Source of the DNA: Bilabrum cf. latius | Lineage: Eukaryota | Reading direction: 5' to 3' | DNA length: 64,000 nt | NCBI GenBank assembly: GCA_965178125.1 | Contig: OZ237767.1 | Span: 248,001 to 312,000 of the forward strand | Shown: positions 43,081 through 57,193 of the stretch, piece after piece | Numbering within the stretch: the first letter of the stretch is position 1 | How the letters are laid out: every line of letters starts with the position of its first letter | Notes under the pieces: generated by a model | Database searches by the model: none | What the model saw: only the letters and a program-made list of their open reading frames with translations | What the model was told of the DNA's origin: nothing | Made by a program: the position numbers and the translations under genes

Positions 43081-43209
43081 GATGCTGAGTGAGTTGCAGC
43101 CGCCGGTCTGTATTTGTCCTTTAGTTGCGTGGATCTTCGCAGGAACCCTGGACTGCGTCGTGGCACGCATCGACTCGTGTGGCACGCACAACATTATTTA
43201 TTTTTAAGT

Positions 43210-46200
43210 ATGAGTGCGTTTGATGACGCGTTCGCGGGATTAAGTGAGATAGCTGCCTCATCCTACCACTCCTGTTGCAGGTCGTTCGTGCACTGAATGG
43301 CATTCCTACAGAACAACGCTTCAATCTGTTGGAGTCATACTGTACCGCAGATGATTCTGCGGGCAAGCCATCGCAGCGACCCGTAATGCGTGGTGTCGTG
43401 CAGCAAGCTCCAGCTGCCGCCGAGCAGCAGAAGCCAAGCATCGCTGGGCGAGATCCACTGCCAATCGAGATTCCTTCAATGTCGGCTAAAGAAATCAAGG
43501 CGTACCTGCGGAGGAAGAAAGTTGATTTCTCACAATGCTTGGAGAAGAAGGAATTCGTGGATTTGGCCGTGAAGGTCGCCACGGGCTCGCTCGGGCTGTC
43601 AGGATCTCTTCTCGCCGGAGGCACGTCGTCCACCGGCGCGGCCTCCAGCGCCGTTGCAGACGCACTCGCCGCAGTGGACGAATTCGAAATCGCGGGCATC
43701 AAGTCAAAGCCCGGCGAGAAAGGCGCAGCCGCAGCGGAGAGCGACCACGTCCGCCAGTTCGCGATCGGAGCACGCTCCGGGCCCAAGCTCGCCCAGTACA
43801 AGGCAGCGCAGGCGGCCACCTCCCTCTCCACCACCGCGGTGCCCCCCGCCCCTCCAAAACACCTCGGCTGCCCCATCCCCGCCGCGGCTCTCGCTCCTTG
43901 CCTGAGGGAAGTGCCCTTCCCGTACCTGAGCGCCTGCCACACGGAAGTGGCCCAGACTGCAGCGGAGATGCAGGCACGGGCGAGTGCTCGCGCGCAGCAG
44001 ACCGCGGCCGCACTTGCGGCAGCCACCTCCCACGCAGTTGCGCGCGCAGTGGCCGCAGCGGAGGCACAGACCGCGCACGAGGCCAAAGAGGCTGTCGAGC
44101 TCAGGCGCTCCCTCCTTCCCTACCGCAAATACCCCAAGGGCAGGGTCGGCCACCGCCGGGTGTTTGAGCTGAGGTTGCGACCGGACGTGGGTGCTGTGGA
44201 TGCACTCAACTCGATGGAGATGTCGGGTCGGGCCGCTGGATTCCGGGCGGTGCACGCCACCCGCCGATCTGTGCTGATGCAGCAGGTGGTGCAAGTGCCG
44301 GCAGCCACTCTTCGGGAGTACGTTGCTTTGGCTGAGAAAGAAGCTGCGGAGGCGAAGCTGGACGCAGAAAACGCAGCCAAGTAGACGGGCGATGGGGGAT
44401 CGTCTGGTGCGGAACATGCAGGACCGAAGCTTGCCACGGGTGCGGCGCCGGTTCCGCACAACCCGGTGCGGTTCACGGAAGCGGTGCAGTCGGTGGCCGA
44501 CAGGCTGGCAGACCGGCTCGGCGGCAGCGGAACCGGCGCCGCGCAATCATCCTACGTGAACTCGGTGACGGCGATGCTCGGCACGGATCCCGAGGGTCGC
44601 CGGTGCTGTTTCCTGCTGGCCGCGGCCTACACGGTGGACAAACCGGTTGACCTGCCGCAAGGCGTGCCGGTGGTGCGCAGGGCCAGACCCGGCGGCAAGA
44701 TGCTCAGAGTGTTCGATGACTGGGAGACAATGCAGGCCAAGGATGGCAGCGGAACCGGTACCGGCGCCGCGCAATCCGCCGGTGGGTCCGGCAGTGGGGC
44801 GGGCGGTGGTGATGGAGATGGTGATGATGACGACGACGACGACGCCGATTTTTCCGCGCTGCTCGGGTCGGAGGGGGGGGTGGCCATCGGGCCAAAGACA
44901 GCGGGGCAGACTGAGTGCTGCCTCGCTCCCGAGCTGCGCGGATTCGGAATCGCGTGCGACGTTGTTCCCCCGGAATCGGAGTCACTGGCGCGGGCCTCCC
45001 TGCCCAAGGTGAAGCCTGTGTTCCCTGAGAGCGTGCCAGGGGGCGCGCTGCCGCCGTGGGCTTGTCTCCGAGTGTCGGTCCTTCGGGCAACGGGGCTCGG
45101 CTCGGGGACTGCCGGATCGTCAGTCGGCGGGGTAGAGGATGAAATCGCGTCTCTCGGGTCGGGAGTGGCCAAAGGCGACGGATCCACGTCTGGATCTCCG
45201 GCCATGTACCGCCGGTTCAGGCTGGAGCGATGCTCCGACGAGCTCGTGCAGCAATGCTGCGCGATCGCAGCTGCCGCCCGATCGAGGAGGGGACCCCAGC
45301 GAGCGGCGGAGGGAAGCAGACAGGCACCTCTGGCGGGCGGATCATCGGGGCTCCGGGTCCTTGCTGAGGGTGCCTGGGCAGACGCGCTAGAGGTGGCCAA
45401 AGAGGAGGAGATGGGGCGGAGGGGTGAAACAGCCGGCCTCGCGTCGTCGTCTCCGGGTGCATCGCACGGTGGTGCGGGCTGGACACGCGGCGAGGTGGGT
45501 GATTTCCAGCTGCACGAGGAGTTTGAAGAGGACCTGGCCTCCCACACGCGAGCCAGGATGCAGAGGAGGCTGTATCGGCAGGCCACCGGCCCCGAGGCGC
45601 AGGCACGGCTGGACGAGTGGAGGGCGACGCAGGTCCGTTCTGCCCTTGCCGAGGCGGCCGGGGCATGCATGGTGACGCTAGAGGCAGACCAGCAGGTACC
45701 CACGCTGCAGGAGTATGCCCAAGCGGAGGAGGGGGCGAATGCAAGCGGTCCGGCTGGAGTCGCGGGGGTCCCAGGTTCGATTCCCAGCGTGGGCGAATTG
45801 GTACCCCCGGCGGAGGCCCGCCCAGAGAGCGAGTCGCGTCTCACGGCCGGGGAACAACTTGCGACCAAGGTGCTGCTGGATGCGTTCGCGCGTTGTGCTC
45901 GGCTCCAGGCCCAGGAGCGGGTCGCGCTGGTGACGCCGGCCCGCGCAGCCGACGAGGAGGAGTCCAAGCGGGCGGCGAGGCAGCGAAGGCACGTGAGCCT
46001 GAGGCGATCTGCAGCATTCCGTGCCTCTGTGGAGCGCGTTCGTGCGATGCAGCAGGTGGCAGCACCCAGGCAGTCCAACCTGCACGGATACCCCATGGCA
46101 AAACTAGCCGTTGAGTAGTTCGAGGTGCAGGACACTGCAGTGCTGTTCGGAACCACGGCCTCCGTGTCGGTGGCCTCCAGCGGGCACCTGCTGGTTACAA

Positions 46201-47489
46201 CCACCGAGGTTCTGCTGGCGTACTCTGCGCTGGGACTGGGCTTTGGCGGCATGAACAAGATTCGATTCCGGATCACGGACCTCTGCGGTGCGTTCCGCGC
46301 GCCATCGCAGGGTGAGCACGGAGTGGCCTTGGTGTACGTGGCAAGGGAGGGCCAGCGGTTCTCGGATGGGCCGGTTCCGCAGACCGTCCGCGGCGCCGCG
46401 CCAGCCGTGCAGCTGGGGTGGGCCGCGCTGGAGGATGAGGAGCGAGCCAGGCTGGCTGGGCTGGGCGGCATATCCGCCCTTGATGTTCTCTAGCTGAGCC
46501 TGGGAGGGAAGGCGGGCCAGCTGCTGCTTCTCCTCGCCCTGCTGCGGCAGGGGCTCAAAACACCGAGGACTGCCCTCCTTCCAGACAGCGACGAGGGGAG
46601 GCGGGCAAAGCTGCAGCAAGATGTGGCCAGACTGGTGGACGCAGAACGGGAGGAAGAAAATCGAAATCCAAGGTCGACCCAGGCGGCGGGCGAACCCGGT
46701 GCCAACGAGGGAAGGAAGGAGGAAGAGGAAGAGGAAGAGGACCTCTTTGCCGCGGCACCCGCAACCGGCTCCGCTGGACAATCGGCGGCGGTCGAGGCGG
46801 TACTATCCGCGGGTATGACGAGTGGGGGTGCGGCCGAGGACGGCCCACGCGCCGGAGAAGAACAAATCGACCTGTTCGGCCTGCTGGCCGCGAGCGAGAC
46901 CCGGCGAAGGGCAGCCGCATCGGGTGTCGGTGCTCGGGGGCAGCGCGCGGGGAGCAGCGGAACCGGCGCCGCGCAGAGCGGGCTCGATGAGGATGCGGAC
47001 GAGCTGGAGGACATTTTCAGCGGGATGCAGGCGCAGGCCGAAGCGCGCGGCGCCGGTTCCGCAGCCCCAGGTCTAGAGACAGGCGATGCTGAGGCCCCCC
47101 CAGCTCAGAGCGGAAGCGAATCGCGACCAGGACTCAGTGCTGAGGTACAAGAGAAGCTGGATGGCGGGATGTCGGTGTCGGCCATGCGGAAGGTACTCCG
47201 CTCGGCTGGCGTTGATGCCTCACGGAGGGGCGTGACAGAGAAGTCGGAGATGGTGTCGCTCGTGAGGTCGGTCCTCGCCGGTGAGGGCGAATTCGCGGGG
47301 TAGCAGCAGGCCAGGGCGGAAGCAGAGCTCCTGGGAAAGCCTGCCCCCCTCACGGGGTACAGTGGGGAGGGCCCCGGGACTATTTCCCGTGGAGGCAGCG
47401 GCGCTTCGTTGCGCAGCGACAGGGCAAGCTCTGCCAGCATGGCGCAGCAACCGCGTCCGGCCTCTGACGATCCGTTCGCGGGGTTGTAA
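43210..47489 (+). CDS. Large hypothetical protein with two MSxKEL..EKxE helical motifs, possible GRAM/PH-like segment and terminal DD(A/P)FAGL motifs
   Basis: ORFs 43275, 44466, 46125 and 46623 are in frame via TAGs; ends DDPFAGL-TAA at 47487-47489. First exon MSAFDDAFAGL. Motifs MSAKEIKAYL..CLEKKEFVDL and MSVSAMRKVL..TEKSEMVSL. Confidence 0.6.
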
Positions 47490-47728
47490 TGCATGATACT
47501 ATCAGGAAACTGAACGGGGAAATATCAGAGGGCTTGTTTGTTGTGTTTGCACATCATTGCGACCATTACCCGCCGCAGTGCTACAGTGCGACCCTTGTGG
47601 GCTCTAAGACTATTTTTGCTAGGAGGTCTATTTGGCAATTTGCTATCCCTATGTATGAATAATGGAGCCAGATGTCTCGCGGCACATCGAAAGATCATAC
47701 TCTGGGCACGATTGAAGGGCTAAAGTTG

Positions 47729-48550
47729 CCCCCCCCGCTACGGTAATAAATAAATTTATTCCCTTCGGTTAAGGATGATTAACATCATCAATAGTTCCAG
47801 TCCATCAGAGCTAAAGCTCTTCAGTCCGTTTCACTCCTTTTGTCGCTAGTCGCTCCAAAAGTCAAGGTAATCTCTATAAAAGATATAGTACAAAAAATGC
47901 TATTTATATAGTATATTATAACATTTCTTGTACCGGGGCTTTTGTTAGAAGGTCAAATGGGACTTTTGGTGTTTTAGTATAAAATAGTCCCTTCATTTTA
48001 GAAGGGTGATTATTTGACCTTCTAAAGTTCAATGTAAATTTATAAAATTAATTCAAGTTCAATCATTAATGAAGGTAAAGCAATAAAATTATATATTTAG
48101 AATGATTATCTAAGGGGTACCCCTTGAAATGGTAATTTAGGGCTAAATAGAATATTAAATATGATAATAATGGGTCATAATAGTATTTAATTTAAAAGAA
48201 TATATTGATAAATAATAAATATATGATATGAATGTATAAATATTAAAAAAAAAATGAAAATGAATATTGAAGTTGAAGTTCAGTATATCTTAGGAAATGT
48301 TGGTCTTTAAAAGTATATGTATAAATAAAAATGAATGTGAATATTCAAGTTCAGTATTAATTCTCATTACGTGGATCTCTCAAGTTTGTGAAGGTGTTAT
48401 GGGACTCTAGCCATTTTCTAGCCAAAAGTTCCATCACTTTATGGGACTCCATTATTCAACCTTCTAAACTACCTTCATTATACCCCCTTATCCTCGCTTA
48501 TACCTTCACAAATGGAACAAACGCGCTTTTATTTTTAAATTGTTATAGAG
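47729..48550. repeat. Non-coding terminal region of the virophage, probable left terminal inverted repeat
   Basis: ~820 bp without ORFs at the element edge; internal inverted repeats 47945-47958/48012-48025 and 48385-48395/48502-48512; palindrome 48112-48125. The partner TIR is not in the window. Confidence 0.5.
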
Positions 48551-48596: not shown

Positions 48597-49394
48597 ATGG
48601 AAGAATTCAAATGGGAAAATGGAACCTTGAAAGCTACACAACCAAAAGAATATTATGAACGAAATGGATTTTAGGTTAATTTTGAAGGGAAAACCTATCA
48701 TATAGCAATGGATAAAGATTATATAAGATGGTTTTTGAAGGACTATAAACCTTATGAAATAATAACAACATTCATAACAGATATGAGTGAAGTATTCAAT
48801 GGATAGGATAAATTTAATGAACCTTTGAATACTTGGGATGTTTCAAATGTTAAGGATATGAGTTTAATGTTTCAAAGTTGTAGAAGCTTTAATCAACCAT
48901 TGAGCAATTGGGATGTTTCTAAGGTTGAAAAAATGTCGTCTATGTTCTATTTTTGTTCTAAATTCAATCAATCATTGAACGATTGGAATGTTAGTAATGT
49001 TAGGGATATGAGTGGTATGTTTGGTTCTTGTTCAAGATTCAATCAACCATTGGGTAATTGGGATGTTTCTAACGTTGAATATATATCCTCTATGTTTAAT
49101 GGATGTTAGAACTTCAATCAACCATTGGATAATTGGGATGTTTCCAATGTCTAGAGTAAGTTTTAGATGTTAAAAGATTGTGAAAGTTTCAATCATTTAG
49201 AGAACGGTATTAAGGGTATAAGAATTGATTATTCTACAACATTGATACCGTTGTTAGAAAGACGAAAACATAAAACCATTAAAAAAACAAAGAAATATAG
49301 AGAGGAATTAATTGCTAAAGCGTGGCACCCTTCAAGATTAGATTGGGTATTGGATAACGAGGAGCGAGACGAGATAGAGGATAATTTTAATTAA
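48597..49394 (+). CDS. DUF285/BspA-type repeat protein, copy 1 (265 aa)
   Basis: FNQPLxNWDVSNVxxMxxMF repeats continue through TAGs at 48672, 48804, 49107, 49152 and 49164; TAA stop; C-terminal EELIAKAWHPSRL. Confidence 0.9.
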
Positions 49395-49483: not shown

Positions 49484-50281
49484 ATGGAAGTTTTAAAATG
49501 GGAAAATGGAACCTTGAAAGCTACAAAACCAAAAGAATATTATTTTAGAAAAGATAATTATATTGTGAAATTTGAAGGTAAAACATATTACGTAGCTAAA
49601 GATACAGATTTTCTTCTTCACGCATTGTAGTTTTTGAAACCTGAATTATTAGTAACAACATTTATTACGAATATGTTAAACCTATTTGATAATATGATAA
49701 TTGAATCACCAATAAATTCATGGGATGTTTCAAATGTTAAAGATATGACCGATATGTTTTATGGGTGTCATTCGTTTAATCAACCTTTAAATAACTGGGA
49801 TGTTTCAAATGTTGAAGATATGGGCGGTATGTTTAATGAGTGTCATTCGTTTAACCAACCATTGAATAATTGGAATGTTTCAAATGTTGAAGATATGAGT
49901 GAAATGTTTAATGATTGCCATTCATTTAACCAACCATTGAATAATTGGAACGTTTCAAATGTTAAAGATATGTGCGGAATGTTTTATGATTGCCATTCAC
50001 TAAATCAACCTTTAAATAACTGGGATGTTTCAAATGTTGTAGATATGGAATGTATGTTTTCTAATTGTTTTAGTTTTAATCATTTGGAGAATGGAATTAA
50101 GGATGAACGAATTGATTATTCCACGACATTAATCCCATCATTAGAAGAGCGGAAAGATGAAACAATTGAACAAACTAAAAAAATCAAAGAAGAATTAATT
50201 TCTAGAGCGTGGCACCCTTCAAGATTAGATTGGGTATTGGATAACGAGGAGCGAGACGAGATAGAGGATAATTTTAATTAA
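49484..50281 (+). CDS. DUF285/BspA-type repeat protein, copy 2 (265 aa)
   Basis: Same repeats; N-terminus paralogous to copy 1 (MEVLKWENGTLKATKPKEYY); one TAG at 49628; TAA stop. Confidence 0.9.
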
Positions 50282-50670: not shown

Positions 50671-50896
50671 ATTTTTGAATTTTAATAATACTATTATTAT
50701 TATTATTAATATATAGTTTAATCCTTGGGTAAGATAAAGTCATCTATAGCCTTTTTGATGATGTCATCCTTCTATTTCTTTATTGATTTCTCAATGGCTT
50801 CCTTCTCTTTTTTAACCAATAAATCTATGGCTACGGTATCATTTAAGTCTTCACTTAGGTATTCAACATTTTCTTCATTTAGCTTATGTATTATTC

Positions 50897-52515
50897 TGAT
50901 CCTAACGCCGGATGGGGTTCGGTGTTGATGCCAGAGTGGGAGCGCGTGAACGTCTCGTTGGGTTCCGATGGCGGTTGCGACCGGGAAGGTGCGACCAAGC
51001 CAACGGATTGCTTGCGATGACGCGCATACCCTCTCTGTGTTCAGGAGAGGGGCGGAGATTGGGTAATTTTTGCGCTCTCGAGATTCGCAGTCTTCTTAGG
51101 GGAATGTTCGCCTCTCAGTGGCGGCACCATCGCTACATACACCAGAAATGCCTAGCGAGTCGTCATCGAGTCCACAGGAGCGTGCGGCGTCCCACGGTCA
51201 CGCTAGCTCGACAGCATCCTCCGGTACTACCACAAAGCATCGCCATCGGCGCACCCGTTGCGTCGATCTTCAGCCCCACTCCGCGCAATCCGACGGTGTT
51301 TCTCGACAGCCGGTTGCAGCACAACAGAGTAGGCTGCTCGGACAGCTGTCTGTCTCTGCTTCTGTGGGGGCCTCCGGCTGGGAGAGCTCGTCGGTGCGTC
51401 CAGACGACAAGCCGGCCTCCAATGGCAGCAAGTGCAGTTCATCACGCGAGACGGACGCATCCATGGTGTTGCCATCCGCCTGGGCCTCCACAAAGCCGAC
51501 GGCCCAGCCAAGTTCTCCATCCCAGCCGCAGAGCCCATCGCAGTCCATTGCAGAGCCGGACGATGGGCAGTCACAGGCAGCAGGTTCTGCGGCGTGCGAG
51601 CCTTCGTGGCGTGGGCAGCAGCGAGCCACGCCCCAACTGCAGGCGCAGACGAAGACTACGCCCGGTAGCTGGCGCTCAGCTGCCCCACGTCAGGGCCAGT
51701 CTTCGTGGCGAACACGAAGCCGATCGTCAAGGCGCAGGTAGTACGGGCGCTCCGCAGCTTCTGCTCACGAGAAGTTGCAGGAGCGGTGCACGGACATTCC
51801 ATCCGCATCGCGGCAGTGATGTGTTTGGACCGTGCTGGGGTCGCCTTCGAGGTCATTAGGCGATTTGGCAGATGGAAGTCGGCATCTGCATGCGAGGTGT
51901 ACTTGCGGGGCGTCAGGGAAGGCTTGCCTCCTCTGGAGCTCGGCGGCAGGAGCCTCGATTTGAACAGGCCAGTGTGGGTGCTGGCCAGCGCGCTGCGGCT
52001 GAACTTGGAGTGAGCCACACAGCCGCAGCGTACAAGACATGGCGGTAAGATTTGGCGGAGTAGTGCACGTGCTCTTCCCAGCCCCGGTCAGTCCGGTCAA
52101 GGGTCGCGCACAGGCACAGCTTTGTCAGGTCTTGCCATGTCTGATTGTTAACGAGACTAGGTTGCGCGTACACTCTGGCATCATGATCCTAACGCCGGAT
52201 GGGGTTCGGTGTTGATGCCAGAGTGGGAGCGCGTGAACGTCTCGTTGGGTTCCGATGGCGGTTGCGACCGGGAAGGTGCGACCAAGCCAACGGATTGCTT
52301 GCGATGACGCGCATACCCTCTCTGTGTTCAGGAGAGGGGCGGAGATTGGGTAATTTTTGCCCACCCTCCCAACCCCCTCCTCCTCGGCGGAGTAGTGCAC
52401 GTGCTCTTCCCAGCCCCGGTCAGTCCGGTCAAGGGTCGCGCACAGGCACAGCTTTGTCAGGTCTTGCCATGTCTGATTGTTAACGAGACTAGGTTGCGCG
52501 TACACTCTGGCATCA
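50897..52515 (+). mobile_element. Internally deleted Ngaro-type tyrosine-recombinase retrotransposon with split direct repeats A1-[YR]-B1-A2-B2
   Basis: GC-rich island. A1 50897-51073 = A2 52184-52360 (177 bp); B1 52054-52183 = B2 52386-52515 (130 bp); YR ORF in between; no target-site duplication. Confidence 0.92.
51063..52013 (+). CDS. Tyrosine recombinase of the Ngaro element (5'-truncated, no in-frame ATG)
   Basis: With TAG read-through (51153, 51204, 51330, 51666): RFAVFL..LSGGTIATY, FCGGLRLGEL (Arg I), LHKAD (Lys), GHSIRIAA (HxxR), FGRWKS (Trp), EVYLR (Tyr); TGA at 52011-52013. Confidence 0.88.
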
Positions 52516-52854
52516 TAAATGGTTGAACGAAATATGATATATAGTCAATTTCTTCAAATTCACTTAATACTCTTTTTTTAAGTCGTTCATTACAATCTGG
52601 AGGGACACGAAGGTCATCAAGTTGAAAATGCTTTAACATTGATGGTTTGTGCTTCTCAACATAAATATATACGATTGACATAAAAGTGGAGATGCTTTTA
52701 TTCTTGAGTACCTTTTTAACGTTGACACTTGATAACAGGAACTTAACGAACATATTATAATGTAGCCCAATATTTTATTTTGATTTATTAAACCCGTTTT
52801 ATAAAATTCTATAGTTTAAAAAAAATATAAAAAATATCTAGTAATTATATATAA

Positions 52855-55123: not shown

Positions 55124-57193
55124 TTATTTTAATAATCTTAGTTTTTCAAAGTGTTGATATAAGATTTGTTTTACCTTGTCCTTCACATTATGATTACCTT
55201 TACCACCGGCTACATTAAAATATTCTTGTTCAATTTGTCCTCCTTTATGCTTGCCACATCCACAACTACCGCCCCTGTTCTATGTTTTTATTTTCTAATC
55301 AATAATTAAATTAATAGCTTTCATTAACATATTATAAGGGTCTTTATTTCCGAAACCTTGAGCTGGTGGTGAATATGTCCATATAGGTATTCCATCCATT
55401 TGATAACCGTTATCAGTAAGAATACTTTTTGCTTGTCTACTAACTGCTCTTGTATCTCTTCCTTCTGTATTTGCTCTGGCTACTAAATCAGCGATTCTCT
55501 CAGGTGGTAGATTAGGTTGTAATACTCCGGCTTTAAGCCTTCGTACAATATATTTTAATGTAGTTGCGGTTTTTGATTCTACTGGATTTATTCCAGCTTT
55601 TTGTAATTGTGATAATATCTATTCCTTAGTTGAACCTGTTTTTACATTTATTGATTGTCCTATTGATTTGGCTATTTCATCATCTGTTTTCTGTGGTTCT
55701 TCTGGTTCTTGTGGTTCTGCTGGTTCTGCTGGTTGTGCTTGTTCTACGGCTTCTCCATCTCTTGGTTCTTCATCTGGGGCTCCCCTCCGTTCTCTAGCTT
55801 GTCTTTCTTTTTCTTCTTGTTGTCTTTGTGCTTCATCTCGTTCTGCCTGTGCTTGTCTTTGTCTGAATTGAACTTCTGTAAGTTGTCTTCCAAATTCATC
55901 TGTAATAGGTTCTCCATCTTCATCTACTGCCATCGCTTCACCTTTTCCTCTGTCTTGACCTGCGGGGGGTGCTTGTGGTTGTGAGCCTGTTTTTCCTGTT
56001 AAATAACTGATACCATCCATAACCGATTGTCCTAAAGAACCAAATGTGCTTTGTTGTTGTTCTGGTGATTGTCCTTGTTCTTGTTCTGGTGATTGTCCTT
56101 GTGGTGCTGGTGATGCTTGTAAGAATCCACTAGGTGGAACTGGTGCGGGTGATACTTTTGAAAACTAGCCTGATAAATTTCTACTGGCGTTCTCCCCTTC
56201 TTCTTCTTGTCCTGATGATTGTGATGCCTCTTGTTCTTGTGCTTTTTGTTTAAGTTCTGATAATTTCTTCTAAGCACTTTTTATAAAATCAACTTTAGAC
56301 CGTCCTTTTACACCTTTAACATTTGACTATCTAAGTATTGATGCTAGTTCGGTTTTCTTTGGTGCTTTTCTACTACTTGAAGGATTGGCGTTTGCTACTC
56401 TTTCAAGTGCTTCAATTTGTTCTTGTAGTTCTGGGCTTAATGCTTCTTGTGGTGTTGGAGGGGGTTTTGGTCTTGGTTCTGGTGGCGGTTGCGGGTTATC
56501 TGGTTCAGGTCTATCAGGTTGCGGGTCATCTCTTTGCTATTGTTGAACGGCTTCAGGAGGATTTAAAACATCCTATAAAGCATTAACAGCGTCATCAACT
56601 TTTGTTAATTGTGAAACATTCTATCCTTGGGGGGTTTTCGTGATTCCAGCTTGTCGTAAAGCGTTTCGTATTTGAACTGCTTTTAATCCTCTCATATCGC
56701 TTGGTAATTGTTCTAATACTGCGTCCCGTTGTGCTTTGGTGGTTGTGAATAATCTCATATTAATATTTTTAATTCCATCAAATACCTTTTTCTTATCGCT
56801 TGCTGGTCCTACTACCTACCTTACATTAATATTATTAATGGTATCTACAACCTATCTTTTTAATTTATCCGGTAAATCTGGATTTCTATTTATAAATGAT
56901 TGTAAATTTTCTATTTGATAAATTGGTAATTCTTTTTTAGCGTTCATAGTCTTAATATTTTTAATAATATTTTCAATTCCTTGTTGTTGTTGTTGTCTTT
57001 CAATTCTAACATCAATAGGAACATAATTAGCACGAAGAAAAGCATCATCTTTTAGGGTTTTTCTTCTGGCTTCTGCTTCATCTTCTTCTTGCTATATCAT
57101 TAATCTAACTTGTGGGTCATTTTGTATCCTAAGTTGATTAGACCGTTTCTACATAATACCCTTCAGTAAATCATTAATTGTATTGTTTGACAT
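55124..57193 (-). CDS. Large Gln/Pro/Glu-rich viral protein (689 aa), possible core/structural precursor
   Basis: Continuous frame from ATG 57193 to TAA 55124-55126 with >10 TAGs and no TAA/TGA; includes track ORF 55619-56020; C-terminal GG motifs (RGG, KGG, AGG). Confidence 0.8.

Follow-up and report, generated by a model that had tools for sequence, protein, structure and literature searches.

To our knowledge, retrotransposons inside virophages have so far been described for Cafeteria burkhardae only, as coding elements of about 6 kb. In that host, GC-rich Ngaro retrotransposons are inserted, in and between genes, in AT-rich integrated virophages (endogenous mavirus-like elements, EMALEs), according to Hackl et al. 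(2021; PMC8547959). These Ngaros have the published layout A1-[ORFs]-B1A2B2, in which split direct repeats A and B flank open reading frames (ORFs) for gag, reverse transcriptase and RNase H (RT/RH), and a tyrosine recombinase (YR) with its HxxR and Y residues. Supplementary file 1 of PMC8547959 lists 80 Cafeteria Ngaros, mostly 4.3-6.9 kb long and a few of them truncated (1,362-3,488 bp); inside EMALEs, the short entries comprise a 437-bp solo AB and one contig-end truncation. The present locus lies in a stretch of 64,000 nt from Bilabrum cf. latius (assembly GCA_965178125.1, contig OZ237767.1, positions 248,001 to 312,000; here called the window), where a 1,619-bp insert with complete Ngaro-like termini interrupts an ORF of an integrated virophage at 50897..52515 (+). 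An initial annotation of the window had described it as a recent mini-Ngaro nested in a virophage and had pointed to the Ngaros of C. burkhardae virophages, which are indeed in print (PMC8547959).

The window insert and the Cafeteria EMALE Ngaros agree in being GC-rich insertions in AT-rich integrated virophages, in their repeat layout and in a YR with HxxR and Y. However, the Cafeteria elements encode gag, RT/RH and YR, whereas the insert has complete termini around a YR remnant only. TAG acting as a sense codon in host, virophage and element is a further difference of the window from Cafeteria, the two having been compared by description rather than by sequence. The solo AB of Cafeteria (PMC8547959) is likewise a degenerate Ngaro product inside a virophage, but it arises when the 5′ and 3′ repeats recombine with each other and has no interior, whereas the insert retains both repeat sets and an interior. 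Another short, non-autonomous derivative made of A and B parts with a unique linker (about 30 bp) is SIRE, related to VIPER in Trypanosoma cruzi (PMC6681497); SIRE, like the insert, may be mobilised in trans or may be a mere remnant. SIRE consists of A2-linker-B2 only (about 435 bp), in contrast to the insert, which adds A1, B1 and a YR portion of 940 bp. In VIPER, the YR precedes RT; in the insert, it is the last ORF.

Among long terminal repeat (LTR) retrotransposons, large retrotransposon derivatives (LARDs) and terminal-repeat retrotransposons in miniature (TRIMs) keep their terminal cis sequences, have lost their coding sequence and obtain their enzymes from an autonomous relative. They have LTRs, a DDE integrase and target-site duplications, unlike the insert, which has split repeats, recombinase-type joining and no duplication. 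Halocafeteria was considered as the setting and rejected: its preprint (10.64898/2026.07.28.741278) gives a host GC content of 47% and, in the part of it that is available, reports no Ngaro.

Anatomy and insertion site of the element

The window consists of host DNA up to about 47.9 kb, with a GC content of ~0.5-0.7, and from there to its end of an AT-rich part (GC ~0.29) that contains only short ORFs under translation table 11. With TAG read as sense, this part opens into virophage ORFs of 689 aa (13 TAG), 629 aa (9 TAG), 385 aa (7 TAG), 366 aa (3 TAG) and 317 aa (5 TAG). In particular, a major capsid protein (MCP) ORF matches the mavirus MCP 6g45 (E 5.3e-8), a penton-like protein matches PF21507 at 24.7 bits (under its cut-off), an rve integrase carries a weak chromodomain match, and a packaging ATPase has a terminase-like PHROG match (E 1.4e-6). 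By homology, these four ORFs identify the AT-rich part as a mavirus-like virophage that is integrated here and runs past the window end, which agrees with the earlier placement of the element inside a virophage. A PDB search for the virophage protease gave no match, and MCP relatives were not found in IMG/VR by pattern search.

The insert is a sharp GC island, with the GC content going up at 50897 (0.29 to 0.63) and dropping back at 52516 (about 60% GC within the insert). Its direct repeats follow the layout A1-[internal]-B1A2B2: A1 (50897..51073, +, 177 nt) is identical to A2 (52184..52360, +, 177 nt) at 177 of 177 positions, and B1 (52054..52184, +, 131 nt) to B2 (52386..52516, +, 131 nt) at 131 of 131, with 0 differences in 308 paired repeat bases. 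The last T of B1 is also the first base of A2, and the T at 50897/52516 is common to element and target. The identity of the A and B repeats stops at all four outer ends, with zero bases of extension. The initial annotation had recognized this layout, the identity of both repeat pairs and a 1.6-kb unit; its 177 nt for A is exact, while its 130 bp for B becomes 131 nt when the shared T is counted. A C/T-rich linker of 25 nt (52361..52385, +) lies between A2 and B2; it was considered as a polypurine tract and rejected because it is pyrimidine-rich on the coding strand.

The 980-bp interior has YR sequence as its only recognized coding content. None of the seven other reading frames has a Pfam match at E ≤ 0.01, in line with the reported absence of RT, RNase H and gag, and for a gag-like ORF1 there is neither an ORF nor room between A1 and the YR sequence. 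Further, an Rfam search of 50700-52700 at E ≤ 1 gave no match, and no further copy of any part of the insert was found inside the window (self matches only). With its coding capacity lost and its YR truncated (see below), the element is non-autonomous, as had been proposed.

An imperfect palindrome spans the B1/A2 junction (52150..52246, on neither strand in particular), with 34-nt arms that are 74% complementary and a 29-nt spacer. One arm is formed by the B end and the other by A bases 30-63; the joint between B and A falls within the spacer, where it borders on the B arm. Either end of the integrated element has one arm (50926-50959 and 52482-52515). As single-stranded DNA, the palindrome folds with a free energy of -30.9 kcal/mol (z -6.2), a value that none of 200 shuffled sequences reaches. 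It could be a recombinase site or a replication structure.

The insertion splits a minus-strand virophage ORF into a 5′ part (52517..52753, -) and a 3′ part (50718..50896, -), the latter with one in-frame TAG. Cutting out 1,619 bp, in either register of the shared T, rejoins the ORF in frame; cutting out 1,620 bp fails to do so. A search with the 5′ part of the ORF retrieved one protein, P0157 (114 aa, encoded on an 8.4-kb contig), which reads straight across the predicted joint (...YFVQPF-R-IIHKLNEEN...) and differs from the window ORF by one residue (Y/C), plus a Q at the window TAG. Together, the P0157 junction and the 1,619-bp excision show that P0157 is the uninterrupted allele and that the insertion was precise, without target-site duplication. 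Insertion without such a duplication, a feature that Wicker et al. 2007 are said to give for the DIRS order, is thus found here. The insertion is younger than the small divergence between the virophage copies of the window and of P0157. The interrupted ORF belongs to no Pfam or PHROG family, and in the form in which it was called (P0158) it has no exact entry in the protein collection.

The tyrosine-recombinase remnant and TAG as a sense codon

With TAG read through, the YR frame is open for 330 codons (51021-52013, +); it contains TAG at 51153, 51204, 51330 and 51666, the four read-throughs already noted, and no TAA or TGA before its stop, a TGA at 52011. Homology covers 313 codons plus the TGA (51072..52013, +), as delimited by tblastn with the full-length relative P0002, whose residues 65-362 align without gaps over 298 residues at 63% identity, starting at 51072. 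The first homologous codon thereby straddles the last base of A1 (51073). Residues 1-64 of P0002 and 1-125 of P0004 had no tblastn match in the element or its flanks; the absent N-terminal motif (RPF..G..GLSGLRTA..F) is conserved in P0002, P0004, P0009 and P0013. The remnant frame lacks an ATG, and a TGA at 51018 closes it on its upstream side. In contrast, the natural C-terminus is kept, ending at the same residue as in the homologues, and its TGA (52011-52013) is separated from B1 by a 40-nt spacer (52014..52053, +). The lack of an ATG and of the N-terminal residues marks the YR, on sequence and model evidence, as a 5′-truncated remnant rather than a working gene. The tyrosine recombinase described as retained is therefore present as YR homology but not as a retained gene, at least 64 conserved residues having been lost, and the YR frame put at ~315 codons is a YR with homology over 313 codons from 51072. 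The figure of ~315 codons probably came from a separate, uninterrupted ATG-initiated ORF of 315 codons (50912-51859), which was rejected as a gene because it has no family match and all homology lies in another frame.

The catalytic residues that the initial annotation had named are in place. R (GGLRLGE) and K (LGLHK) occupy conserved columns of the YR alignments, while HxxR, W (the W/H position) and Y align with the catalytic C-terminus of Cre in a profile alignment; a complete two-domain YR with a start codon is not what this copy contains. The AlphaFold model of P0002 (predicted local distance difference test score, pLDDT, 80) matches Cre/Tre, IntI, XerA/XerH and lambda Int over both domains, with Cre matched over its full length (E 2e-6); like Cre and other two-domain YRs (PDB 3crx, 5u91), P0002 is thus predicted to have both domains. 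Identity between Cre and P0002 or the YR is 13-15%, and, in contrast to Cre, the window copy is without about the first 1.5 helices of its N-domain. In the model, P0002 residue 65, where the remnant would begin, lies midway along N-domain helix 56-76; helix 19-39 is gone too, so that of the four main helices of this DNA-binding domain about 1.5 are predicted to be lost (at least 64 conserved residues).

Four close YR homologues (P0002-P0005) were found in a collection of 5.8 billion proteins, at E 1e-114 to 9e-69 and 50-82% identity. A profile search of 1.84 billion representatives returned 321 proteins at E ≤ 1e-3 and 7 at E ≤ 1e-30, so the immediate YR clade is small. The Pfam family PF00589 reaches 29.4 bits on the relative P0012, above its cut-off of 27.1. 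An ESM Atlas search with P0002 gave clusters without names, one of them with PF00589 in 12% of its members, and YR relatives were not found in IMG/VR.

The insert is classed here as a derivative of a Ngaro-like (DIRS-order) YR retrotransposon, where the term Ngaro-like rests on repeat layout and gene order only and a PAT-like element is also possible, since PAT-like and VIPER-like elements share the A1..B1A2B2 layout (PMC6681497). Ngaro elements are told apart from PAT- and DIRS-like ones by the grouping of their RT/RH and by having no methyltransferase domain. The copy has the split direct repeats of Ngaro-like elements and a YR in place of a DDE integrase, the latter as a 5′-truncated remnant only; it has neither an RT/RNase H ORF nor a gag-like ORF1. 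The YR as last ORF, 40 nt before B1, fits the order gag-RT/RH-YR. It is not a solo AB or SIRE-type form, as it has two A repeats, two B repeats and a 980-bp interior. More distant relatives of the YR occur at 11 metagenome loci, at 24-39% identity. Among the four of these loci whose ORFs were scanned, RVT_1 lies upstream of the YR on the same strand in three (L002, L003 and L004), and L001 has no match; among the four scanned for repeats, L002 and L008 have B-x-B direct repeats downstream of the YR. Tandem arrays of ~76-77-nt repeats also occur in the distant relatives just downstream of the YR, before B-x-B (L002 3130-3779; L009 7133-7696; L010 1692-2255; L008 2662-3119).

TAG is a sense codon in the host, the virophage and the YR, and probably encodes glutamine, consistent with the variant code having reached a third replicon, as had been suggested. 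For the virophage, P0157 has Q at the TAG of the interrupted ORF, in a record for which the gene caller's code is not known. For the YR, a Q stands opposite TAG216 in P0003 (82% identical) and P0002, and opposite TAG62 in P0002, P0004 and P0009; TAG45 and TAG104 fall in variable columns. For the host, one kinase TAG aligns with a conserved Q of PINK1 and NEK1, while two other kinase TAGs, one ATE1 TAG (against human and yeast) and the MCP TAGs of the virophage (against 6g45) are at variable positions, where the residue is uninformative. The host ORFs of 1,000-1,450 codons look intron-less and are open only with TAG read-through (4-9 TAG each); their domains include kinase/PHR, seipin, PARP, ATE1 and exonuclease. 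Because the repeats show zero differences, the four TAGs cannot be nonsense mutations acquired after insertion; they were present when the element inserted. Moreover, P0010 is the window's own C-terminal YR fragment, cut at TAG216 by a standard-code gene caller, and P0156, which is 98% identical to it, begins at the same residue; the in-frame TAG216 is therefore common to a diverged copy. 

Across the 19 host and virophage ORFs checked, stops are TGA or TAA only, and long ORFs of both host and virophage have 4-13 TAG each. In the virophage, CAG is nearly absent and TAG makes up 16-56% of TAG+CAG+CAA. The window has no tRNA genes and hence no visible suppressor tRNA. PMC6905037 mentions no more than an ochre tRNA in some virophages; no paper tying virophages to UAG reassignment was found in paper listings on virophages, stop-codon reassignment and the genetic code.

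Origin of the element

The insert is a recent, non-autonomous, internally deleted Ngaro-like element, and we lean towards the explanation that it was integrated in its already deleted form by enzymes supplied in trans. Beyond the anatomy, truncation, precise insertion, recency and TAG sense described above, this explanation would entail a retro-origin of this copy, a supply of enzymes from elsewhere and a deletion that preceded integration. The parent would have been a full-length Ngaro-like retrotransposon with gag, RT/RNase H and a complete YR. From it, gag, RT/RNase H and at least the first 64 YR codons would have been lost, with the left breakpoint at the 3′ end of A1 and with every cis part kept, from A1 and the palindrome-bearing B1A2 junction to B2. 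The deletion may have arisen when the reverse transcriptase switched templates at the end of A, or because an existing mini-element RNA was copied. As the remnant has no ATG and lacks part of its N-domain, movement would have needed the RT and YR of a full-length relative, and the deleted cDNA would then have been integrated as a mini-element. Entry into the virophage ORF would have occurred by conservative, recombinase-type joining with one shared T. The insertion is recent, as had been claimed, because both repeat pairs are still identical; a model cited in PMC6681497 makes the pairs identical at insertion. The further YR C-termini on two other contigs and the sequencing runs described below also speak for this explanation.

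The timing of the deletion separates this explanation from one in which a ~6-kb Ngaro-like element inserted and was later cut down in place by a single deletion, leaving a unique, dead remnant. Such in-place decay is the less probable course, at perhaps a quarter of our expectation. In its favour, the junction is known from a single copy, the YR remnant is clearly without function, and truncated Ngaros do occur in Cafeteria (1,362, 1,996, 2,659, 2,844 and 3,488 bp among the 80 entries of PMC8547959, supplementary file 1). However, the deletion would have had to fall in the short time that left 0 differences in 308 paired repeat bases, and it would have had to start at the last base of A1 yet spare every cis repeat. 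A breakpoint exactly at the end of A1, with all cis repeats spared, thus favours an already deleted unit over a later deletion. This argument depends on the A repeat being complete, which is probable on comparative grounds because a short unique A2-B2 linker is also found in VIPER/SIRE (PMC6681497). If the linker were instead the tail of a longer A, the breakpoint would be arbitrary inside A1 and the replication-linked argument would fall. 

That a non-autonomous 1.6-kb family is actively spreading, targets virophages and is able to ride in virophage particles appears unlikely. The initial annotation had proposed mobilisation in trans and a size small enough for packaging with the virophage. 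Neither the cis repeats nor the junction palindrome show damage or divergence, and further pieces of YR exist: an identical 102-aa C-terminal fragment on a 15.9-kb contig and a 98% identical C-terminal variant on a 2.6-kb contig. The 15.9-kb contig may be another locus, because three neighbouring virophage ORFs of the window have no exact entry in the protein collection. However, neither fragment shows the deletion junction, a full-length parent would hold such fragments as well, and the interruption of a virophage ORF may impair the carrier virophage. Half or more of the words sampled from the element are present in sequencing runs of four studies, one of which may be the source of the window itself; none of the runs listed was of RNA. 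In its fullest form, a live mini-Ngaro that is transcribed from A1, copied and circularized via the B-A palindrome by the RT and YR of a relative, aimed at virophage DNA and, being small, carried from cell to cell in virophage particles, the idea is similarly doubtful, with about one chance in five by our reckoning.

An assembly artefact, in which a full-length element was collapsed or mis-joined, is very improbable. Repeats within and between elements are hard to assemble, as Hackl et al. report for Cafeteria virophages (PMC8547959), but a collapse needs shared sequence on either side, whereas the A1/A2 identity ends at the junction and is followed by in-frame YR; moreover, both outer junctions fit the independent uninterrupted allele to the base. 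Still more improbable is a Crypton-like DNA transposon that encoded only a YR and never had an RT. The YR is the only coding sequence and the insertion made no target-site duplication, but a Crypton would have an intact YR as its sole ORF and no split direct repeats. Here, the YR is without a start and a conserved N-terminus, the A1..B1A2B2 layout characterizes Ngaro-, PAT- and VIPER-like retroelements (PMC8547959, PMC6681497), and distant relatives of the YR follow an RT.

Besides the possible longer A, several results count against the integration of an already deleted, trans-mobilized Ngaro-like element. The linkage to RT comes only from relatives at 24-39% identity, and PF00589 scores 22.5 bits on the window YR, below the cut-off of 27.1. 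No full-length parent, second A1-YR junction or circular junction was seen, and the words across the A1-YR and B-A junctions are absent from IMG/VR. The junction-spanning 315-aa ORF in the alternative frame has no exact entry in the protein collection, and a search for shorter proteins, such as N-terminal YR fragments of a parent, returned P0010 only. The ORF across A2, linker and B2 also has no exact entry in that collection.

Neighbouring features and implications

The left end of the virophage encodes tandem paralogous DUF285 (PF03382) repeat proteins (48597-49394 and 49484-50281, both +; E 7e-56 and 3e-55), the second of which holds four tandem 75-nt units (49708-50082). The 689-aa virophage ORF (55124-57193, -) has a low-complexity core rich in P, Q and E, with a local GC content of 0.36-0.38, and a family search with it gave no match. 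A zone of intermediate GC content (0.39-0.50; 47490-47900) separates the virophage from a 1,413-codon host ORF that ends in TAA (43248-47489). The GC-rich stretch 43121-47489 has, on each strand, an open frame of over 1,300 codons with 4 TAG; neither frame has a Pfam match, and either strand may be the coding one. The right end of the virophage lies beyond the window.

Deletion derivatives that are defective are nothing unusual in themselves; one of 1.6 kb with complete ends, in the virophage of a TAG-sense host, is a novel form of a familiar kind of element. No complete-ended mini derivative inside a virophage was found in paper listings on non-autonomous DIRS/Ngaro forms, and one may exist in print.

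The window and P0157 provide a base-exact pair of states, before and after, for the recombinase-type integration of such an element. The insert also defines a minimal cis set for mobilization tests: the A and B repeats, the B-A palindrome and the 25-nt linker. Further, the use of TAG as sense in host, virophage and retroelement links both virophage and element to hosts that use this code. Should the insert be a one-off deletion, it represents ordinary decay. If the mini-element is mobile, it would help to find out how YR retroelements select virophage DNA and whether they spread with it. A live mini-Ngaro, if true, would be a retroelement parasite of a virus parasite with a horizontal route of its own, in a lineage whose three layers all read TAG as glutamine.

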